Under the pieces are notes generated by a model, which was not told where the DNA came from, made no database searches, and was given only the letters and a program-made list of their open reading frames with translations. Position numbers and translations under genes: made by a program. Of a stretch of DNA of 64,000 nucleotides, positions 46,120-52,689 are shown piece after piece (the first letter of the stretch is position 1; each line of letters opens with the position of its first letter). The stretch is from Rhodobacterales bacterium (GTDB lineage Bacteria; Pseudomonadota; Alphaproteobacteria; Rhodobacterales; CAZPXZ01), in NCBI GenBank assembly GCA_965217995.1, contig CBDCKB010000004.1, positions 643,788 to 707,787 of the forward strand, given 5' to 3'.

Positions 46120-46187
46120 GCTTTCGGCCTCCTTGGGCTGGTTGTGAAACGGACGATGTCCGATGTCGGTGAGGGCGGAACAATCCG

Positions 46188-46214
46188 TTAGCACTCACTG
46201 GCGTCGAGCACCAA
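46188..46214 (-). promoter_or_regulatory. CIRCE-like HrcA operator in the groESL leader
   Basis: Minus strand reads TTGGTGCTC-N9-GAGTGCTAA against the consensus TTAGCACTC-N9-GAGTGCTAA. The right half is perfect and the left half matches 6/9. Confidence 0.7.
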
Positions 46215-46228
46215 CAACTCCGAAGGGG

Positions 46229-46257
46229 ATATAGGGGCAGGGGCGGGATTCGTCAAG
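46229..46257 (-). promoter_or_regulatory. groESL promoter (fits both the alpha-RpoH CTTG-N17-CCTATAT and the sigma70 TTGACG-N17-TATATC patterns)
   Basis: Minus strand reads CCCCTTGACGAATCCCGCCCCTGCCCCTATATCCCC, immediately upstream of CIRCE. Confidence 0.5.
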
Positions 46258-46786
46258 GGGGGCGCACCCCCCAGGGATACTGCACCCGGTCGGGCCTTGC
46301 GGGCACTGGTTTTTCCCGCCGGGGTCGGCGGCGGTCAGGTGGCGACGGAGGCTCTCTCCAGGGGGGTAGATACCCGATGGGCGTCATTCCGCCAGGTGCG
46401 GCATGGGGCCCTGGTTGTGGTGAACCACGAGGCGCCGGGCATCCTGCCTGTACCCGTCGAGGGTGGCTGCGACAGAGGAGGTTTCGCAGAGCACCTTGCG
46501 CCAGGTGCGCCGGCACCGCTCGACGCAGCCACTCTGTTCGGGACTGCGTGGTGGGATGACCTGCATGGCCATGCCGCGCTCCTGGAAGGGTGCATCGAAG
46601 GCGCCGCGGAACCCGGAGCCGTGTCGGCCTGGCCCCCGGATGACGACCGGGAAGGTCTCGAGGATGCGCTCGAAGGGCACTCGCATGCTGCGCGCCGAAG
46701 GGGTGGTGACGAATTCTGCGGCGATCAGTTTCGGTACCAGACTGTTCGGCATGTGAGCTGCAGCCGGGCTGCTGTCCATCCGGCAC
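46253..46786 (-). mobile_element. degraded rve-type (IS481-family-like) transposase fragment, copy 1
   Basis: Broken frames contain ...VIPPRSPEQSGCVERCRRTWRK... and ...HHNQGPMPHLAE / PHAAPGGMTPIGY. Homologous to the copies at 48977-49916 and 51898-52100. Confidence 0.7.
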
Positions 46787-48112
46787 TGGCCGCTGCCATC
46801 ATTGCCTGGGTCCGATTGTGCCCAGCCTGGTCAGGGATGGCCGGACGGCATGCTTGATTCGATCCCGCAACAGATATCCCATCTGCCCAAGGGGGCTGAC
46901 CGATACCCTATGCTCGCCCGTCAAGATATTTGAGCAGCGCAGCACCGGATTTGCTCTCAATGAGCCGATCGGAAATCTCCATCAGCAATTCGGGATCGGA
47001 TATCTGATCCAGATGCTCTGTCAGCCGTCCGACCGTCTCCGGATCAAATTTCGATGCCGCCTGACGGCACAGTCTCTTCCGAATTGCGTCCAGTATTTCC
47101 TCGTGGCCTGTCTCAAGCCATCCCTTGACCCAGTCGGGATCCGGCCAGTCCATCACAAGTTCTTCCATCTGCTTCATCTGCCCCAGCGGGGGCAGATCCG
47201 GGTCGATATGCTTTTGGATATCGTCACGCATTGTTGAAACCTCCATAAACCAGCCGTAGAACGTCCTGGCCAAATCTTCCTTGCCAATTTCCTGCAACCG
47301 CATTCTCAAGCCGTACAACAACGGTTGCAACGCCTCGAAGGAACGCCGCTCCTGCTCCAGCGCGATTCAGGAACGACACCAGATGGTTCGGCATGTGAAC
47401 TGCAGCCGGGTTGCTGTCCATTCGACACTGGCCGCCGTCATCATTGCCTTGGTCCGATTGTGCCCAGTCTGGTCAGGGATGGCCGGACGGCATGCTTGAT
47501 TCGATCCCGCAGCAAATATCCCATCTGCCCAAAGGGGCTGACCGATACCCTATGCCCGCCCGTCAAGACATTTGAGCAACGCGGCACCGGATTTGCTCTC
47601 AGTGAGCCGACTGGAAATCTTTACAAGCAATTTGGGGTCGGATATCTGATCCAGATGCTCTGTCAGCCGTTCGACCGTTTCCGGATCAAATTTCGATGCC
47701 GCCTGACGGCACAGTTCCTTCCGAAATGCCCCCAGCGTTTTCTCGCAACCTTCCGTTAGACCTTTCTCGAGACCTTTCTCGAGACCTTCCGTTAGACCTT
47801 CCTCGCGGCCTTCCTTGCGACCTTCCATATGGCCTGTCTCAAGCCATCCCTTGACCCAGTCGGGATCCGGCCAGTCCATCACAAGTTCTTCCATCTGCTT
47901 CATCTGCCCCAGCGGGGGCAGATCCGGGTCGATATGCTTTTGGATATCGTCACGCATTGTTGAAACCTCCATAAACCAGCCGTTGAACGTCCTGGTCAAA
48001 TCTCCCTTGCCAATTTCCTGCAACCGCATTCGCAAACCGCGCAACAACGGTTCGTATGCCTCGCAGGAACGCCGCTCCTGCATCAGTGCGATCAGGAACC
48101 ACACCAGATTGT
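46745..48112. repeat. head-to-tail direct duplication (unit a 46745-47386, unit b 47387-48112, roughly 90% identical apart from an 84-bp indel)
   Basis: Direct alignment of ttcggcatgtgaRctgcagccgggYtgctgtccat... through the Rpn C-terminal coding region. Junction at 47386/47387. Confidence 0.85.
46908..47330 (-). CDS. free-standing Rpn C-terminal-domain ORF created by the duplication (truncated Rpn copy; may be a pseudogene)
   Basis: The 140-aa ORF (TTG start; in-frame ATG at 47303) aligns with the C-terminus of the full Rpn: ...LRMRLQEIGKEDLARTFYGWFMEVSTMRDDIQKHIDPDLPPLGQMKQMEELVMDWPDPDWVKGWLETGH... Confidence 0.5.
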   Translation of the reverse strand: MQPLLYGLRMRLQEIGKEDLARTFYGWFMEVSTMRDDIQKHIDPDLPPLGQMKQMEELVMDWPDPDWVKGWLETGHEEILDAIRKRLCRQAASKFDPETVGRLTEHLDQISDPELLMEISDRLIESKSGAALLKYLDGRA

Positions 48113-48659
48113 TCGGTATCGATTGTGCCAGCGGATGCCTCCATTGGTCAAGCAAAAGATATTGCGCTGACAGCCCCCACAGAGACCACATCTTCCGGCC
48201 CGTTTTCCTCATCTCCTCCAAAGAGCGTGCCGAGTTCCACAACCGCTCGCCGCAATAGAGAACGATCAGCACGATCTCCGGCAGCTTCTTCTTTGGGGCG
48301 CTCCGGAAAATATCCAGACACAGCAACCCGGCATAATTCAACATGCGGAGCACCATGGACGGCTCAACCGTGGACTGGCATTCCAGCACCACGACCAGAT
48401 ATTCGTCGCGGTCACGAAACTTCACACGCCAGACCAGATCGCCCTGGTACCGCCTCAGATCTGGGCTCACCCAATCGGAGGGCAGTCTTTCCAGGGTTGA
48501 AAAATCGAGCTCATCACTCCGGGACGGCTCTACGAAACCGGAAAGCAGATCTATGACCATCTCCGGATGGCTGAACATCTGCCTGTAGTACATATCCAGC
48601 CACTCACGGCGCGGTCGGCGCGGCCGGCGCGATCTGCGGGATACTTTGGGGTCAACCAT
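47550..48659 (-). CDS. Rpn (YhgA-like) PD-(D/E)XK recombination-promoting nuclease / putative transposase family protein
   Basis: ORF 47550..49322 trimmed to ATG 48659 (or 48593, MYYRQMFSHPEMVIDLL). Core block ...YQGDLVWRVKFRDRDEYLVVVLECQSTVEPSMVLRMLNYAGLL... is Rpn-typical. The C-terminus has EG-rich repeats. Confidence 0.8.
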   Translation of the reverse strand: MVDPKVSRRSRRPRRPRREWLDMYYRQMFSHPEMVIDLLSGFVEPSRSDELDFSTLERLPSDWVSPDLRRYQGDLVWRVKFRDRDEYLVVVLECQSTVEPSMVLRMLNYAGLLCLDIFRSAPKKKLPEIVLIVLYCGERLWNSARSLEEMRKTGRKMWSLWGLSAQYLLLDQWRHPLAQSIPNNLVWFLIALMQERRSCEAYEPLLRGLRMRLQEIGKGDLTRTFNGWFMEVSTMRDDIQKHIDPDLPPLGQMKQMEELVMDWPDPDWVKGWLETGHMEGRKEGREEGLTEGLEKGLEKGLTEGCEKTLGAFRKELCRQAASKFDPETVERLTEHLDQISDPKLLVKISSRLTESKSGAALLKCLDGRA

Positions 48660-48976
48660 CGAGAACACCGTTGTTTTTTGTGTATCTTCGTTCTGGCTGG
48701 CTTGGCTCCTGTAAAAGCACCCGCACCAGCCGCTTTTGTGGCATCCGTCGACCCTGCTGGGAGCAGGCGGTCGCGGATGACCGGCGATGGTTCCGGTACG
48801 GGTGGTGCTGCCGATGCATGCAGCAAGCCGCCCGCCCGCTGTGCGGTGGGGGCGGGGACCGGGCGGGATTTGCAGGCGGACGCACCGTCCCCGCTCCACC
48901 CTCGGATTCTGCATGCACTCGTCATGGAAAACACTTTTTACGAATCGCCTCGGAGCTGTCAACCCGCTGTACGCAA

Positions 48977-49916
48977 TCACTCCATCGGGCATTCCTGACA
49001 GGCCCTGCCGGCGGTGGTGTTTTCGCCGGAATCGGTGGCGGTCAGGTTGCGGCGGAGGCTCTCTCCAGGGTGTTCGGGGAGATCCTCGATGGGCGTCCTT
49101 CCGCCCGGTGCGGCATGGGGCCGGATATGGTTGTGATGAACCACGAAGCGCCGGGCATCCTGGCTGTACTCGTCGAGAGTGGCTGCGACGGAGGAGGTTT
49201 CGTAGAGCTTCCTGCGCCCGGTGCGCTGGCACCGCCCGACGCAGCCATTCTGTTTGGGACTGCAGGGCTGGATGACCTGCATGGCAATGTCGCGCTCTTG
49301 GAGAAGTTCCCGAAGACGCCATGGAACTCTCGGTGCCGTTGTCGGTCTGGACCCCCGGATTTCGACCGGGAAGGTCTTGAGGATGCGCTTGGAGGCCCCC
49401 GTATGTTGCGCGCCGAAGGGGTGGTGACGTTCCGCGGCGATCAGTTTCGAGGCCGGGTCGCAGACCGTCAGCTGATAGATCCAGCGGCCGGGGGGATCGC
49501 GCAGAAACAGCGTGTCGGCCTGCACCCTCTCTCCGGGTTGGTGGGGGCGGCTGCCCTTCTGCCGGCGGGTTGCCGGGGGCGCGGAGTGGATCGCCTATGG
49601 GGGCTGCTGGCGGGCCTGAGGCGGCAAACTCTTGTTTTTCTTGGGATATCTCAGGATCCGCCCGACCGTCGCTTTAGAGGTTTGGAAGCCCACGCCCCAC
49701 AGAAGGATCACAATCTTGCCGGGCCCCCAGGTGCGCTGCATGGGGGCTGAACGAATGTCGGGGATCGCAGTTTGAGCTTGTGGGACCCTGCCCGGCGACG
49801 CAGCCGCCGGGGCCGTCGGGAGTCCGGAGCAGGGTCTGAACTCCAAAGCCATTGAGCAGCTCGCCCGAAAGCTTTTTGTGGATTGATGAAAGGCGGATAT
49901 CCGCACTCCTCAACAA
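48977..49916 (-). mobile_element. most complete copy of the rve-type (IS481-family-like) transposase, frameshifted (pseudogene), copy 2
   Basis: N-terminal HTH-like WGPGKIVILLWGVGFQTSKATVGRILR (frame of ORF 49595..49906). Catalytic part GERVQADTLFL...QVIQPCSPKQNGCVGRCQRT...HHNHIRPHAAPGGRTP (ORF 48977..49525). Several frame breaks. Confidence 0.7.
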
Positions 49917-49919
49917 GCA

Positions 49920-50429
49920 CTACAGCAGTTCGTTAAAAGGCTGTATTCTGAATTTGTGATTGTTCGTCCAGTCGGCACATATGTTGTTGGCTTGTTCGAC
50001 GGTCAACACACGACATGTAATCAAATTCAGAATGATGCCCCGCGTGCACAGGATACAGAGTTCCTTCCCGAAAATACGTGCCTTAACACGTGCATGGTTG
50101 ATGGCTTGCTTGTCATCAATAGCCAATCGATAATCGCGATTAAGCGCAACCGCAATAGCTGAACACTCACCGGCACCCAAGCGCCTCCCGGCAACCACGA
50201 GTTCCCTCAAATGATCAAATATCTTGACTTCATCCCGATCCAGATCGAGTTCTTCAACAAGATAGCGGGCGGTAAAAGCCGCCGTGTAATGAATTTTTTC
50301 ATTGGAGTAGGTAACTTCCTCGGCAATATGTTTTGTGGTACAAAATGAATCCGGGTATCGGCCAATCAAGTCCATGCGACCGATGCGCAAGAAATTGATC
50401 AGGACGGATGCATCAACAACGACGCGCAT
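49920..50429 (-). CDS. PIN-domain protein (PIN_3/DUF3368-like)
   Basis: MRVVVDASVLINFLRIGRMDLI..., ...LGAGECSAIAVALNRDYRLAIDDKQA..., ...TRGIILNLI. This matches the DUF3368 layout (vvDtS.Li.L..i..LdLL / GkGEaeaIaLA / lLlDD..AR). Confidence 0.75.
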   Translation of the reverse strand: MRVVVDASVLINFLRIGRMDLIGRYPDSFCTTKHIAEEVTYSNEKIHYTAAFTARYLVEELDLDRDEVKIFDHLRELVVAGRRLGAGECSAIAVALNRDYRLAIDDKQAINHARVKARIFGKELCILCTRGIILNLITCRVLTVEQANNICADWTNNHKFRIQPFNELL

Positions 50430-50451
50430 TGGAGTAAACCAATGATGCCAA

Positions 50452-51735
50452 TCAATCCGGGCACGGGGTCTTTGCTAATTCAAGCATTTCGTCACTGTCA
50501 ATTTCAAGTTTTCTGCCAATTTCCGCAAGCCGACCACGGGAAATCTCTTCCTGACGAAAAGCTTCAACCGACAAGCGTCTGAGCTGGTTGTGAATGTCCC
50601 ATTCGCAGGCTTCTGACAATGCGGTTTTGGAGGGCAATTCGTGGTGGGTCAGCTGTTTGATATGTGCTCTACCGTCGCCACTTTTTTCGGCAAGCTCTCC
50701 CCCTTCACTGGCGCTAATATGGCCCAGGTTTTTCAATCGCCAAACCGCTACCTCGTAGCTAACGCCAAAATGGTGTGCAAGAACAGCTACGTCCTGACAC
50801 GTTGCTGATTTGGGCTTCGTCCGCGGACAGGTATTTGCTTCGGTCTGCATTTCATCGGCGGAATCAAAACCTATCTGTTGGCGCGCAACTGGATATCCCT
50901 TACCGATTTTTTCAAGTTGCTCTGCAACACCTTCCTGCGGCATTAAAAATGCTGCGGCAAAGGCATTCGCCCTTGTCTCCATGAAATTCGCCGGTTTCTT
51001 TGCGAAATTGGACAAGCTTTCCTGCCGCGTCATGATAACGGCACTGTCCAAGCGATCAAAAAGAGCATGCGCGAACTCGTGCAAATAGGAGAAGCGCCTA
51101 CGCACGGGCGGATTCTGCTGGTTGACCAGAATGGCCAGTCCGACATCCGGATGATTCACGAACAAACCAGAAAGCCCATCGGGGAGCTCAGTCGCTTCCG
51201 TCCAAATGCCCTGGTCGCTGATAAGCTTTTCAATATTTTGGATAGGCTCATCCCCGATACCAAGTCGGCGACGCTCTTCCTCGGCTACCTTCTCACCTTG
51301 ACAAACAGGACTACGGGGCAGATTCACCGTTTGTGTGCCATAATCGGGGGGAGTCGACTCAACCGTCTGATTGAGCATTCTCCGCAGGGCCGCGCCTTCG
51401 CTGTACAAATCGAACAGCCGCCGCAGTTTAACTTTAGCCTCCGAAGAAAACTCAATCTCCTGCGCAGACTCCAGTTCGGACAGTTTTCGATGCAAGACAA
51501 CAAGCAGGCCGTCTTCGCTCAATCTTTCGTCTGCCGAGAGGAAACCCGACGCCGGACACTGATAGATTTCAGCCAGCTTTGTAATTTCAAACACCGATAC
51601 CGCACACTGACCGGTCTCCAGGTTGATTATATCCGTACGAGTCAGATCAACCGCATCGGCGGCTTCTTTCAGGCTGATGCCACGCTGTTCCCGTGCGGTT
51701 TGCAGTCGGTTTCCAATCTGCGATGCACTGAGCAT
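50452..51735 (-). CDS. XRE-family HTH fused to an ImmA/IrrE (COG2856) zinc metallopeptidase
   Basis: N-terminal HTH (LQTAREQRGISLKEAADAVDLTRTDIINLETG), HEFAHALFD HExxH motif, and VLAHHFGVSYEVAVWRLKNLGHI. AT-rich. GGGAGA RBS. Confidence 0.85.
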   Translation of the reverse strand: MLSASQIGNRLQTAREQRGISLKEAADAVDLTRTDIINLETGQCAVSVFEITKLAEIYQCPASGFLSADERLSEDGLLVVLHRKLSELESAQEIEFSSEAKVKLRRLFDLYSEGAALRRMLNQTVESTPPDYGTQTVNLPRSPVCQGEKVAEEERRRLGIGDEPIQNIEKLISDQGIWTEATELPDGLSGLFVNHPDVGLAILVNQQNPPVRRRFSYLHEFAHALFDRLDSAVIMTRQESLSNFAKKPANFMETRANAFAAAFLMPQEGVAEQLEKIGKGYPVARQQIGFDSADEMQTEANTCPRTKPKSATCQDVAVLAHHFGVSYEVAVWRLKNLGHISASEGGELAEKSGDGRAHIKQLTHHELPSKTALSEACEWDIHNQLRRLSVEAFRQEEISRGRLAEIGRKLEIDSDEMLELAKTPCPD

Positions 51736-51803: not shown

Positions 51804-51897
51804 ATACCAGCTGTCGGAGCCGCCACTTCTCCTTTGAATACCAAGAACACAGGATTCTAGGCCAAACGCCAGATCAGTCAAACCGATATACGCACAA

Positions 51898-52100
51898 TCA
51901 CTGCATATGGCATTCCTGGCGGGCCCTGCCGGCGTTGGTTTTTCCGCTGGGATCGGTGGCGGTCAGGTTGCGACAGAGGCTCTCTCCATGGTGCTTGCGT
52001 AGATACCCGATGGGCGTCATTCCGCCAGGTGCGGCATGGGGCCGGATATGGTTGTGATGAACCACGAAGCGCCGGGCATCCTGCCTGTACTCGTCGAGGT
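51898..52100 (-). mobile_element. 3' fragment of the same rve-type transposase, copy 3
   Basis: ...LDEYRQDARRFVVHHNHIRPHAAPGGMTPIGYL...; the DNA is near-identical to copy 2 up to an abrupt break near 52100. Confidence 0.7.
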
Positions 52101-52689
52101 GTAAGCAATCAAACACATATGGCGCTCCCAACAGGCGGGTGAAAGATGCAGGAAAAGGCTGAAGGCAGGCAGGAAGCGATCTGTCCGTTCGGGGTGCCGT
52201 GCCCGCCTTTTCGCCAAACCCCTGAAACTGAACGCAAAACAAGTGGGCCCCAGGGGCCAATTTATCTCCCGGAGGCGGGGGACTTGCCCCCAGACCCTTC
52301 CCGGATACTCTCTCCGTCATGGTCAGCCAGATCACGATCCGGGACAGGCAGAACGCCCCCTTCTTGATGCGGACCTGCACCTGTGAAGGGTATCGCCGGG
52401 GCATCGCCGCCCGGACCCGTGTCGGGGTGTTCGATTACGACGGGGACCATGTCCGGGACTCGGGATGTCCGGGATTCGGAAGCCAAACCCCGCGGCTGCT
52501 CCGCCATCCGCGGGATCCAACCGGATGCGACATCCGAACAGGTCGCACATGCCAGGTTCTTCGCCGCCCGCCCGGTCCCGGGCAGCGCATCCCACAGGCA
52601 CGGGAAGCTGCAAAAAACACGCGGACAGCTCATTAAGCGTATAGTTCCCCGCTTTTCAGGGGCTTTTTTCTGCGGAGAGCGGGGGCGAT

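Follow-up and report, generated by a model that had tools for sequence, protein, structure and literature searches.

What might a partial copy of an rpn gene do when it lies directly downstream of the intact gene, and how did it come to be there? The question is posed by a tandem repeat at 46.7–48.1 kb of the window, by which we mean the whole 64,000-nucleotide stretch of DNA that was analysed. The preliminary description had proposed that the repeat arose by a crossover at a microhomology of about 13 bp and that the copied C-terminal domain could serve as a dedicated antitoxin. Pairwise alignment of the region bore out two head-to-tail units, as claimed about 90% identical (Table 1): units a and b share 90–93% identity, with a mean of 89% across the whole alignment. 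Direct-repeat comparison gave 90% for 46725–47024 against 47367–47666 and 93% for 47097–47366 against 47823–48092, and the two flank copies, F_a and F_b, are 93% identical. The single large indel is 84 bp (7 × 12 nt), lies within 47739–47846, and is present in unit b and not in unit a. The motif CCGAACNNTCTGGT occurs three times in the 64 kb window against a chance expectation of 0.03, every time at a unit boundary and on the minus strand. The motif coordinates given earlier were exact for the leftmost copy (46737–46749) and one base off for the junction and the 48.1-kb copy. The same arrangement recurs in contigs L002, at 99.96% identity across 6.9 kb, and L090, where the duplicated modules are 100% identical; it is therefore not an assembly artefact.

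Table 1. Coordinates of the rpn locus and its duplicated units in the window.
Feature	Position	Strand	Description
T_A	46293..46744	-	Truncated, degenerate 3'-half fragment of an IS481-family transposase gene, between cassette and groES
Terminal motif M1, CCGAACAGTCTGGT	46736..46749	-	Between F_a and the IS481 fragment; hybrid
Unit a	46745..47386	-	Partial copy C' plus second flank copy F_a (46745-46907)
Free-standing ORF, maximal	46908..47330	-	140 aa from TTG, 131 aa from ATG at 47303
Most likely product	46908..47231	-	107 aa, MRDDIQKH...; GGAGG and 8 nt ahead of the ATG
+1 insertion and TGA	47365..47368	-	One of two T at 47365/47366 (+ strand); in-frame TGA 47368->47366
Junction motif MJ, CCGAACCATCTGGT	47378..47391	-	End of F_b meets start of C'; identical in all eight sister cassettes
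Unit b	47387..48112	-	Last 186 codons of rpn (C) plus 163-nt 3' flank F_b (47387-47549)
rpn (RpnL)	47550..48659	-	369 aa, stop codon included; ORF and start codon
12-nt (4-aa) repeat tract	47739..47846	-	Seven more repeats than unit a; period-12 direct-repeat family D4
Boundary motif M2, CCGAACAATCTGGT	48103..48116	-	Codons PNNLV within rpn, upstream edge of unit b
U	48660..49000	-	341-nt region upstream of rpn; 93-96% conserved in all sister cassettes
T_B	49001..49537	-	Longer IS481-family transposase fragment upstream of rpn; with U, the 5' part of the cassette

Judged by its domain content and active-site residues, the long gene encodes an intact Rpn/YhgA-like, RpnL-type nuclease. Its product is laid out as an N-terminal PD-(D/E)XK YhgA-like nuclease domain, a linker, a helix of 4-aa repeats and a C-terminal tail. 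Residues 22–198 match Pfam PF04754 (Transposase_31; 71.5 bits against a gathering cutoff of 21, E = 9.4e-20); the score against the narrower NCBIfam model TIGR01784 is 29.6, under its cutoff of 52.1. All 185 homologues carry PF04754 and several are named Rpn family by NCBI. The RpnA catalytic residues D11, D63, E82, Q84 and R94, defined by mutagenesis (PMC5350276), align with D22, D74, E93, Q95 and R105 at a constant offset of +11, and the D/W/R/E/Q/S columns are almost invariant among 31 homologues in a 32-sequence alignment. The complete Rpn gene recognized earlier is thus present with its whole catalytic set. A tblastn search with Rpn found no second copy elsewhere in the window, and no close Rpn relatives were found among GTDB species representatives. 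GroEL reaches no more than 81% identity with alphaproteobacterial GTDB representatives, so the organism is one without a close reference genome.

The separate ORF of at least 130 aa, described as encoding only the Rpn C-terminal domain, is also there. It lies 220 nt past the stop codon of rpn and is 73% identical in amino acid sequence to Rpn residues 190–369 (tblastn), which identifies it as a repeat-free copy of the C-terminal domain of Rpn, of the RpnSs type. The AlphaFold model is all-helical (pLDDT 86.8), and the point at which the repeats would be inserted falls inside a long helix (66–94). As regards the start, the in-frame ATG at 47303 exists, but the translated product is more likely the 107-aa protein that begins at 47231; this stretch is conserved at the nucleotide level, and a public gene call (P0127, 107 aa) is 100% identical to it. 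An alternative ATG at 47153 would give 81 aa (MDWPDPDW) and lies 17 residues before the repeat site. A +1 frameshift and a TGA separate the ORF from an ATG in the flank at 47421. Six of eight sister copies are without the insertion and read 178–186 aa from MDSSPAA...; the ancestral free ORF was of that length, with its start at the ATG inside the flank. The L001 orthologue has the same insertion as the window.

The tail itself has no Pfam match to DUF4351 (PF14261) even at E ≤ 10 by hmmscan. Relatives at 31–38% identity have PF14261 at the equivalent position, and an hhalign comparison with such tails is colinear and marginal (E = 0.0012, probability 19%). Neither sequence nor Foldseek comparison linked the tail to the RpnA-S structure 7TH0. 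A σ70 scan of 46200–49100 gave one promoter-like site (48151->48122) against 0.9 expected, which is not above chance, and no terminator was predicted in flank F in the same interval. The flank had no Rfam match at E ≤ 1 and no sign of a structured RNA (fold energy z-score 0.14). We also considered that it might be a degenerate rpn N domain, upstream region or IS fragment, the junction then being a gene-conversion boundary; these comparisons gave no signal (local alignment score 20 against 18 ± 2.3 for shuffles).

The pair belongs to a cassette, about 2.7 kb long and made up of IS481 fragment, upstream region, rpn, flank and C', that repeats in arrays of up to three. Its junction, TCACATGCCGAACCATCTGGTG, is identical in eight cassettes on five contigs at no fewer than three loci. 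A paralogue, L087, whose full-length protein is 51% identical, has an rpn gene followed by two further tandem tail copies, and public data hold 13 clusters of free-standing proteins of 77–186 aa, among them the 107-aa call that matches the window's. In the window the cassette adjoins a candidate defence pair (RmrA-like and PDC-S70-like).

This arrangement is already known rather than a new kind of system. Separately encoded RpnS copies downstream of rpn, which are products of duplication with differing numbers of repeats, were described in E. coli as ypaA/rpnESs and rpnCSs (Zhong et al., 2023, PNAS; PMC10400941), and the window holds a further example of the rpnE-ypaA type. In rpnE-ypaA, as in the rpnC-rpnCSs pair of some strains, a full rpn gene is followed by a tandem partial copy of its 3' end, and this copy constitutes a small gene of its own. 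Our sequence comparison with K-12 rpnE-ypaA found the same anatomy: the copies are 89% identical there, close to the value here, and differ by a whole 12-nt repeat, YpaA having one more than RpnE (here 0 against 7). Fusion and deletion variants and rpn arrays also occur among E. coli strains. The systems differ in that the duplicated segment here comprises 186 codons and the 163-nt flank, whereas in K-12 it is about 61 codons from the ribosome-binding site; the flank supplied the start codon of the ancestral free ORF here; the pair here sits in a repeating cassette with an IS481 fragment; and the host is an uncultured alphaproteobacterium whose C-terminal tail falls under the DUF4351 threshold. 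With the gene-within-gene RpnL/RpnS systems (RpnA-E, RpnP2; 7TH0) the locus shares the N-terminal YhgA-like PD-(D/E)XK domain with conserved D, D, E-x-Q and R, a C-terminal domain that is variable and helical and contains 4-aa repeats (a hydrophobic residue with charged residues or Gly), a putative internal start placed 17 or 43 residues ahead of the repeats, and a neighbourhood of defence genes. Unlike in those systems, the internal start and promoter are predictions here, and similarity to 7TH0 is not detectable by sequence or Foldseek.

We therefore favour, at a probability of roughly 0.6, a reading that takes the locus as a single unit of a defence cassette of the Rpn toxin/antitoxin type, with a free small gene of the rpnSs type. 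The duplication happened once, in an ancestor of this Rpn clade, after which the cassette was amplified into arrays and copied to other loci; C and C' exchange sequence by gene conversion and unequal crossover, and their repeat tracts expand and contract independently. The copy retains the stretch likely to hold an internal ribosome-binding site and start (GGAGG-N8-ATG at 47231) and probably yields a helical, RpnS-like protein predicted at 81–107 aa. Expression could come from an internal promoter, as in E. coli, or by read-through from rpn, which is possible because no terminator is predicted in the flank. The predicted protein would modulate Rpn toxicity through its dimerizing helix.

Whether it would do so as the dedicated antitoxin of its neighbour depends on the repeats. 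The tract in unit b encodes MEGR KEGR EEGL TEGL EKGL EKGL TEGC and is recognizable as the hypervariable helix of Rpn proteins, of which a hypervariable 4-aa repeat tract is a hallmark (PMC10400941). In E. coli, RpnS blocks RpnL, the separately encoded RpnESs is expressed, repeat number sets the specificity of RpnL/RpnS pairing, and a mismatch of one repeat abolished neutralization (PMC10400941). Here the sister full genes have between 4 and 13 repeats and the free copies between 0 and 7, and within each of the eight pairs the lower number is that of the free copy. Published work backs an antitoxin-like role for such proteins, but because the counts mismatch in all eight pairs and a single repeat matters in E. 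coli, neutralization dedicated to the neighbouring toxin is doubtful. With 0 repeats against 7, the window's copy is unlikely to be the matched antitoxin of its neighbour; other Rpn paralogues are its more probable targets, or else it functions chiefly as a recombination partner by which the toxin's tail can be replaced.

The most serious alternative, which we nevertheless think unlikely, is that the window's free copy is a non-functional, decaying by-product of recombination, open by chance and through gene conversion from the intact gene. Several points favour this reading: the +1 frameshift removes the ancestral start, the repeat tract is wholly lost, and the L001 orthologue has many extra substitutions and no longer has its internal ATG codons. 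The dN/dS of the window pair, 0.69, does not differ from neutral (binomial p = 0.30, no significant purifying selection), and the chance of finding no stop in C' under neutral change is 0.26. Values of 0.3–1.0 across the family, in both C and C', are not decisive as evidence of function, openness could be kept passively by gene conversion from the functional gene, and selection on the window's copy taken alone is not demonstrable. What argues against decay is the family as a whole. In two lineages whose full-length proteins are just 51% identical, each of the 10 free-standing copies keeps an open frame from the GGAGG-ATG as far as the stop, and three independent lesions all lie upstream of that ATG, a clustering with a probability of about 0.017. 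RefSeq lists E. coli ypaA as a pseudogene, a point for the by-product reading, yet this counterpart is translated (PMC10400941).

Sequence exchange between C and C' raises two further possibilities. Distance matrices for the preA, preB and post segments give incongruent nearest neighbours; for example, the window's C' has a tail whose nearest neighbour is that of the L001 full-length gene. The C' copies of L003 and L004 have acquired C-type sequence in their 5' part by conversion, and in L090 an N domain has been joined to a tail of C' type that bears 2 repeats; Zhong et al. (2023; PMC10400941) noted fusions between the N domain and rpnSs. Such events, together with repeat numbers that differ within every pair, favour the view that the copy is mainly a recombination substrate, a stored alternative tail swapped into the toxin by gene conversion or unequal crossover, its protein being secondary; the swaps would alter repeat number and tail, and hence the specificity of toxin/antitoxin pairing. 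We regard this view as improbable. Tandem repeats exchange whether or not this is selected, there is no sign of a programmed mechanism or a fitness benefit, and the exchanges are compatible with an antitoxin role. It is also improbable, if slightly less so, that the free tail copies form a library of alternative specificity modules, always with shorter repeats than the toxin gene, bounded by the conserved 14-nt CCGAACNNTCTGGT and swappable onto the nuclease domain by unequal crossover or gene conversion, as in L090. In silent-cassette systems, such as the donor cassettes of antigenic variation, a partial, promoter-poor copy likewise lies beside an expressed gene and exchange of segments produces variants; the likeness is one of outcome only.

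On the origin of the repeat, tandem partial duplication stands, and its placement in time and space has to change. The duplication is ancient and a property of the family, neither local nor recent, because the eight cassettes share their junction and the flank and junction of L087 are homologous to those of the window (flank local score 33 against 16.6 ± 2.3 for shuffles; junction equal to the window's minus 15 nt). As L087 has this homologous flank and junction with no IS481 fragment nearby, the transposase-adjacent motif cannot have templated the duplication. The IS481 sequences are themselves relics rather than active elements, to judge from their state. T_B matches rve_3 and NF033577 (IS481), in the C-terminal half only (profile positions 133–282 of 284; 56.6 bits against a cutoff of 224); T_A is 83% identical to T_B from T_B position 89 onward; and the fragments T_A, T_B and T3 are frameshifted, truncated and 83–90% identical to each other, and so fall short of a member of the family, which would have a complete DDE transposase gene and terminal inverted repeats. 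The gapless homology of the two fragments stops at 46733, and the CCGAAC half of the leftmost motif is absent from other fragment copies, so that the earlier assignment of 46737–46749 to the transposase fragment holds only in part. The left half of that motif is Rpn-like, and a 12/17 microhomology with the IS481 fragment extends into its right half; the motif is probably a deletion scar, left where a third unit was lost and its stub joined to the fragment. The original proposal of one recent local crossover between the PNNLV codons (48103–48116) and a chance 13-bp match in the transposase fragment (46737–46749), implying an unduplicated native flank F-CCGAACAGTCTGG-IS481, would account for a motif at all three boundaries, a junction copy that is a left/right hybrid of the outer two and the full second flank expected of a primary product, but it is extremely improbable given the same junction in eight cassettes at other loci, the L087 lineage, units already about 10% diverged, other IS481-fragment copies that natively have just TCCGGTATCG..CTGA (12/17 match to rpn), and a left motif that is explained without coincidence by deletion of a third unit against the IS fragment. 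Relatives show arrays of three units as well as deletions of this kind.

Free-standing RpnS copies downstream of rpn have so far been documented mainly in E. coli, and the Rpn cassette described here extends them to an uncultured alphaproteobacterium. It also offers a rich natural series, every member of which has defined junctions. The series includes one tail copy on its own, a paralogue with two more, a copy that is frameshifted, a C'-type tail joined to an N domain, and cassette arrays of up to three. With this series one can ask whether repeat mismatch uncouples the free copy from its neighbour, and whether tail exchange diversifies Rpn systems. If the free copies did form a library of modules, the 'obligatory co-evolution' of the overlapping RpnL and RpnS would be broken, so that toxin and antitoxin could quickly form new pairings under phage pressure, and the cassette arrays with their IS481 relics would belong to that diversification process too.

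Pairwise alignment of the duplicated region confirmed a head-to-tail direct repeat: positions 46725–47024 match 47367–47666 at 90%, 47097–47366 match 47823–48092 at 93%, and the two tandem units, a and b, align in full with a mean identity of 89%. The alignment contains one indel of 1 nt and one of 84 bp, the latter being a run of 12-nt repeats (47739–47846, repeat family D4) of which unit b has seven more than unit a. The same arrangement is present in two other assembled contigs: L002 is 99.96% identical along 6.9 kb, and the duplicated modules of L090 match at 100%. The duplication of about 90% identity in the preliminary description is thus borne out; two of its positions were shifted by one base.

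All genes of the duplicated region lie on the minus strand. The full-length gene is predicted to encode a YhgA-like Rpn nuclease. Its product matches Pfam Transposase_31 (E = 9.4e-20), and a homologue search with it returned 185 proteins, all PF04754 and several named 'Rpn family recombination-promoting nuclease'. Residues D22, D74, E93, Q95 and R105 match D11, D63, E82, Q84 and R94 of RpnA, each shifted by 11 positions; mutation of these RpnA residues abolishes or alters its activity (PMC5350276), and a 32-sequence alignment shows hardly any variation in the corresponding columns. The Pfam match and the conserved catalytic residues agree with the earlier view that this rpn gene is complete. 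The C-terminal part carries the family hallmark, 4-aa repeats in which a single hydrophobic residue is combined with charged residues or Gly; they read MEGR KEGR EEGL TEGL EKGL EKGL TEGC. In contig L001 (3255–4412), from a sister strain, the full-length orthologue has 11 repeats and an in-frame stop (LLLDQ*RHP); the toxin gene is inactivated in that strain and intact in the window.

The short ORF duplicates Rpn residues 190–369 at 73% amino acid identity and has zero repeats. A separate C-terminal-domain ORF exists, as proposed, but the start then preferred, 47303, needs correction; 47231 is more likely, which has the conserved GGAGG-N8-ATG and from which the public gene call (P0127) gives a 107-aa product. 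The shortening of this ORF stems from a +1 insertion (47365/47366) that introduces a TGA and is also present in the L001 orthologue. The second candidate start, at 47153, fits the 8–20 residue rule of Zhong et al. (2023; PMC10400941) by its distance from the repeat site. An AlphaFold model of the short ORF, built on 32 sequences, is all-helical (pLDDT 86.8), and the repeat insertion point is predicted to fall within a 29-residue helix. Pfam DUF4351 did not reach threshold in the Rpn tail; relatives at 31–38% identity have DUF4351 at the equivalent position, and a profile-profile comparison was colinear but marginal (E = 0.0012, probability 19%). No link was found between the tail and the RpnA-S crystal structure 7TH0.

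Features of the rpn cassette and its surroundings (window coordinates)
Feature	Position	Strand	Remarks
Full-length rpn	48659->47550	minus	best start ATG at 48659; 369 aa
Short ORF	47330->46908	minus	140 aa from TTG, or 131 aa from ATG at 47303
Candidate start GGAGG-N8-ATG	47231 (unit a); 47957 (unit b)	minus	conserved
Second candidate start ATG	47153	minus	MDWPDPDW; 81 aa; 17 residues before repeat site
CCGAACNNTCTGGT sites	46736-46749; 47378-47391; 48103-48116		exactly the three unit boundaries
Candidate defence gene	49920-51735 (pair)	minus	427 aa; HTH + Peptidase_M78/ImmA-IrrE; PADLOC RmrA, E = 2.9e-25
Candidate defence gene, adjacent	49920-51735 (pair)	minus	169 aa; PADLOC candidate system PDC-S70, E = 3.5e-10
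IS481 3'-half transposase fragments	51877-52228; 49001-49537; 46293-46744		degenerate; 83-90% mutual identity

Sister contigs were picked by an identical GroEL or as carriers of the closest Rpn relatives, which gave five further contigs and eight cassettes in total. Each cassette has the order IS481 fragment, 341-nt upstream region, rpn, 163-nt 3' flank, partial copy, and the junction TCACATGCCGAACCATCTGGTG is identical in all eight. Cassettes lie at the groES locus (window, L001, L002, L090) or, in L003 and L004, between a DUF1636 gene and an AMP-binding fragment; L005 holds three of them as an array. The free ORF is 178–186 aa long in six of the eight cassettes, where its start is an ATG inside the flank (MDSSPAA.HMPNHLV...). 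In array-internal cassettes, just the initial 18 nt of the flank separate the stop of the partial copy from the IS481 fragment, which begins there at its position 1. The window represents the array end adjoining groES, where the partial copy is followed by a full second flank, the leftmost boundary motif and the IS481 fragment from position 89.

A paralogue in contigs L087 and L088, with only 51% protein identity, has two further tandem tail copies after its rpn gene (L087:4001–6652, same in L088; tail-copy period about 700 nt), with no IS481 fragment near it. Its flank is homologous to that of the window (local score 33 versus 16.6 ± 2.3 in shuffles), and its junction aligns with the window junction if a 15-nt in-frame gap is allowed. 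L089, a close relative of this paralogue, is without a tail copy and has only the first ~35 nt of the flank in common. From these comparisons we infer that the duplication is older than the split of the two lineages, the copies having since evolved in concert and sometimes been lost. Two independent duplications whose breakpoints happen to coincide within a few nt at one end and 15–18 nt at the other are less likely. The terminal L087 flank is followed by what looks like a stub of yet another copy (CCTGCACCGATCC). Between the lineages, homology of the 163-nt flank (46745–46907 and 47387–47549 in the window) stops at the duplication junction point, even in terminal copies at different loci, as if the distal end of the flank were fixed; its conservation is not explained by any RNA family, unusual fold or ORF.

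It had been proposed that the duplication arose by crossover at a microhomology with the transposase fragment. The motif CCGAACNNTCTGGT does occur three times in the 64-kb window (0.03 expected), and its middle copy is a left/right hybrid of the outer two, as is expected for any tandem duplication of a motif-bounded unit. However, other IS481-fragment copies read GGTCTGCGAYCCGGYMTCGARACTGA at the position of the leftmost motif, without CCGAAC, so that this motif copy is not native to the transposase. Because it is non-native and the junction is old and common to eight cassettes, such a crossover is disfavoured as the origin. Those IS481 copies do contain TCCGGTATCGAGACTGA, which matches the rpn sequence TCTGGTGTCGTTCCTGA at 12/17 positions. 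On the simplest reading, the leftmost motif would be a remnant of a third tail unit, comprising its initial few codons, and the rest of the unit would have been deleted against the IS fragment at this microhomology; relatives provide precedents for a three-unit array (L087) and for such a deletion (L090).

Every rpn cassette of the sister contigs has one such IS481 fragment beside it, and these fragments appear to serve as recombination points between cassettes. The RmrA/PDC-S70-like pair lies upstream of the cassette, between the IS481 fragments at 49001–49537 and 51877–52228, and is replaced by another rpn cassette in L001 and L090. Such a neighbour agrees with reports that rpn genes are enriched in defence islands. 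The cassette and its IS481 relic stand immediately upstream of the groES–groEL heat-shock operon (46194->44109), which is preceded by a CIRCE-like inverted repeat, TTAGCACTC-N9-GAGCACCAA, at 46187–46213.

The two units of the window point only weakly to a function of the free copy: dN/dS is 0.69 (9.5 synonymous and 23.5 non-synonymous differences; not different from neutral, p = 0.30), and the ORF would stay open 26% of the time under 33 random substitutions. Across the family dN/dS is 0.3–1.0 for in-gene and free copies alike, in line with a 'highly variable' domain. The family-level pattern of openness is more telling. All ten free copies, from two lineages, are open from GGAGG-N8-ATG through the stop. 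Upstream of this start fall all three independent disrupting lesions, namely the frameshift common to the window and L001, the TAG found at the junction of L087 and the TGA of its third copy, a clustering with a probability of about 0.017 by length alone. The middle 192 nt of the duplicated segment, around this start, have a synonymous divergence (pS) of 0.05, versus 0.22 and 0.09 in neighbouring segments, which may stem from a promoter or start signal embedded there or from a hotspot of gene conversion. This stretch (47121–47312 and 47847–48038, LQEIG...WLETG) is near-invariant at the nucleotide level in 14 of 16 copies, and over its last ~155 nt (47121–47275 in unit a) both units of the window are 100% identical. 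No terminator was predicted in the flank, so the free copy could be co-transcribed with rpn.

In E. coli, rpn genes are toxin–antitoxin systems in which RpnS, a small C-terminal protein from an internal start, blocks the full-length nuclease RpnL; their common helix differs in its number of 4-aa repeats, and a single additional repeat is enough to abolish neutralization unless both partners have it (PMC10400941). By homology, the RpnL of the window would be a toxic nuclease restrained by RpnS from its own internal start, and the free copy would probably yield an RpnS-like helical protein. The suggestion that this copy is a dedicated antitoxin is doubtful. Repeat numbers in full gene and free copy are 7/0 in the window and 4/2, 11/7, 7/3, 6/3, 11/2, 8/4 and 13/3 in the other pairs, never equal and lower in the free copy in all eight; if the E. 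coli specificity rule holds, it is not its neighbour's matched antitoxin. Possibly it acts on other Rpn paralogues; a 2.37-Mb contig listed for several Rpn and free-copy proteins is probably the window's own genome. It may equally be a weak or competitive modulator, or matter mainly as a recombination partner. Sequence exchange is evident among the copies: three tail segments give incongruent nearest neighbours, and in L003 and L004 the free copy is partly converted to in-gene sequence. In L090 (1–1175) the rpn N domain is joined directly to a free-copy-type tail that has just 2 repeats; after the tail come 18 nt of flank and then the IS fragment. Here a natural deletion/fusion has swapped the tail of the toxin, giving the 'fusion' variant known from E. 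coli.

Separately encoded RpnS copies are known from E. coli, where ypaA (rpnESs) downstream of rpnE and rpnCSs downstream of rpnC were each independently derived from the upstream gene, deletion and fusion variants exist, and rpn arrays originated by tandem direct duplication (PMC10400941). In E. coli K-12, ypaA duplicates the final ~185 nt of rpnE in tandem (89% over 142 aligned columns, with one additional 12-nt repeat), and the repeat counts differ by one, a mismatch as in the window family. The window locus is the same kind of structure in another organism, whose GroEL is at most 81% identical to that of any species representative (best matches all Alphaproteobacteria), and involves no new mechanism. 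Its natural variant series lends itself well to tests of repeat-number specificity and of tail exchange.
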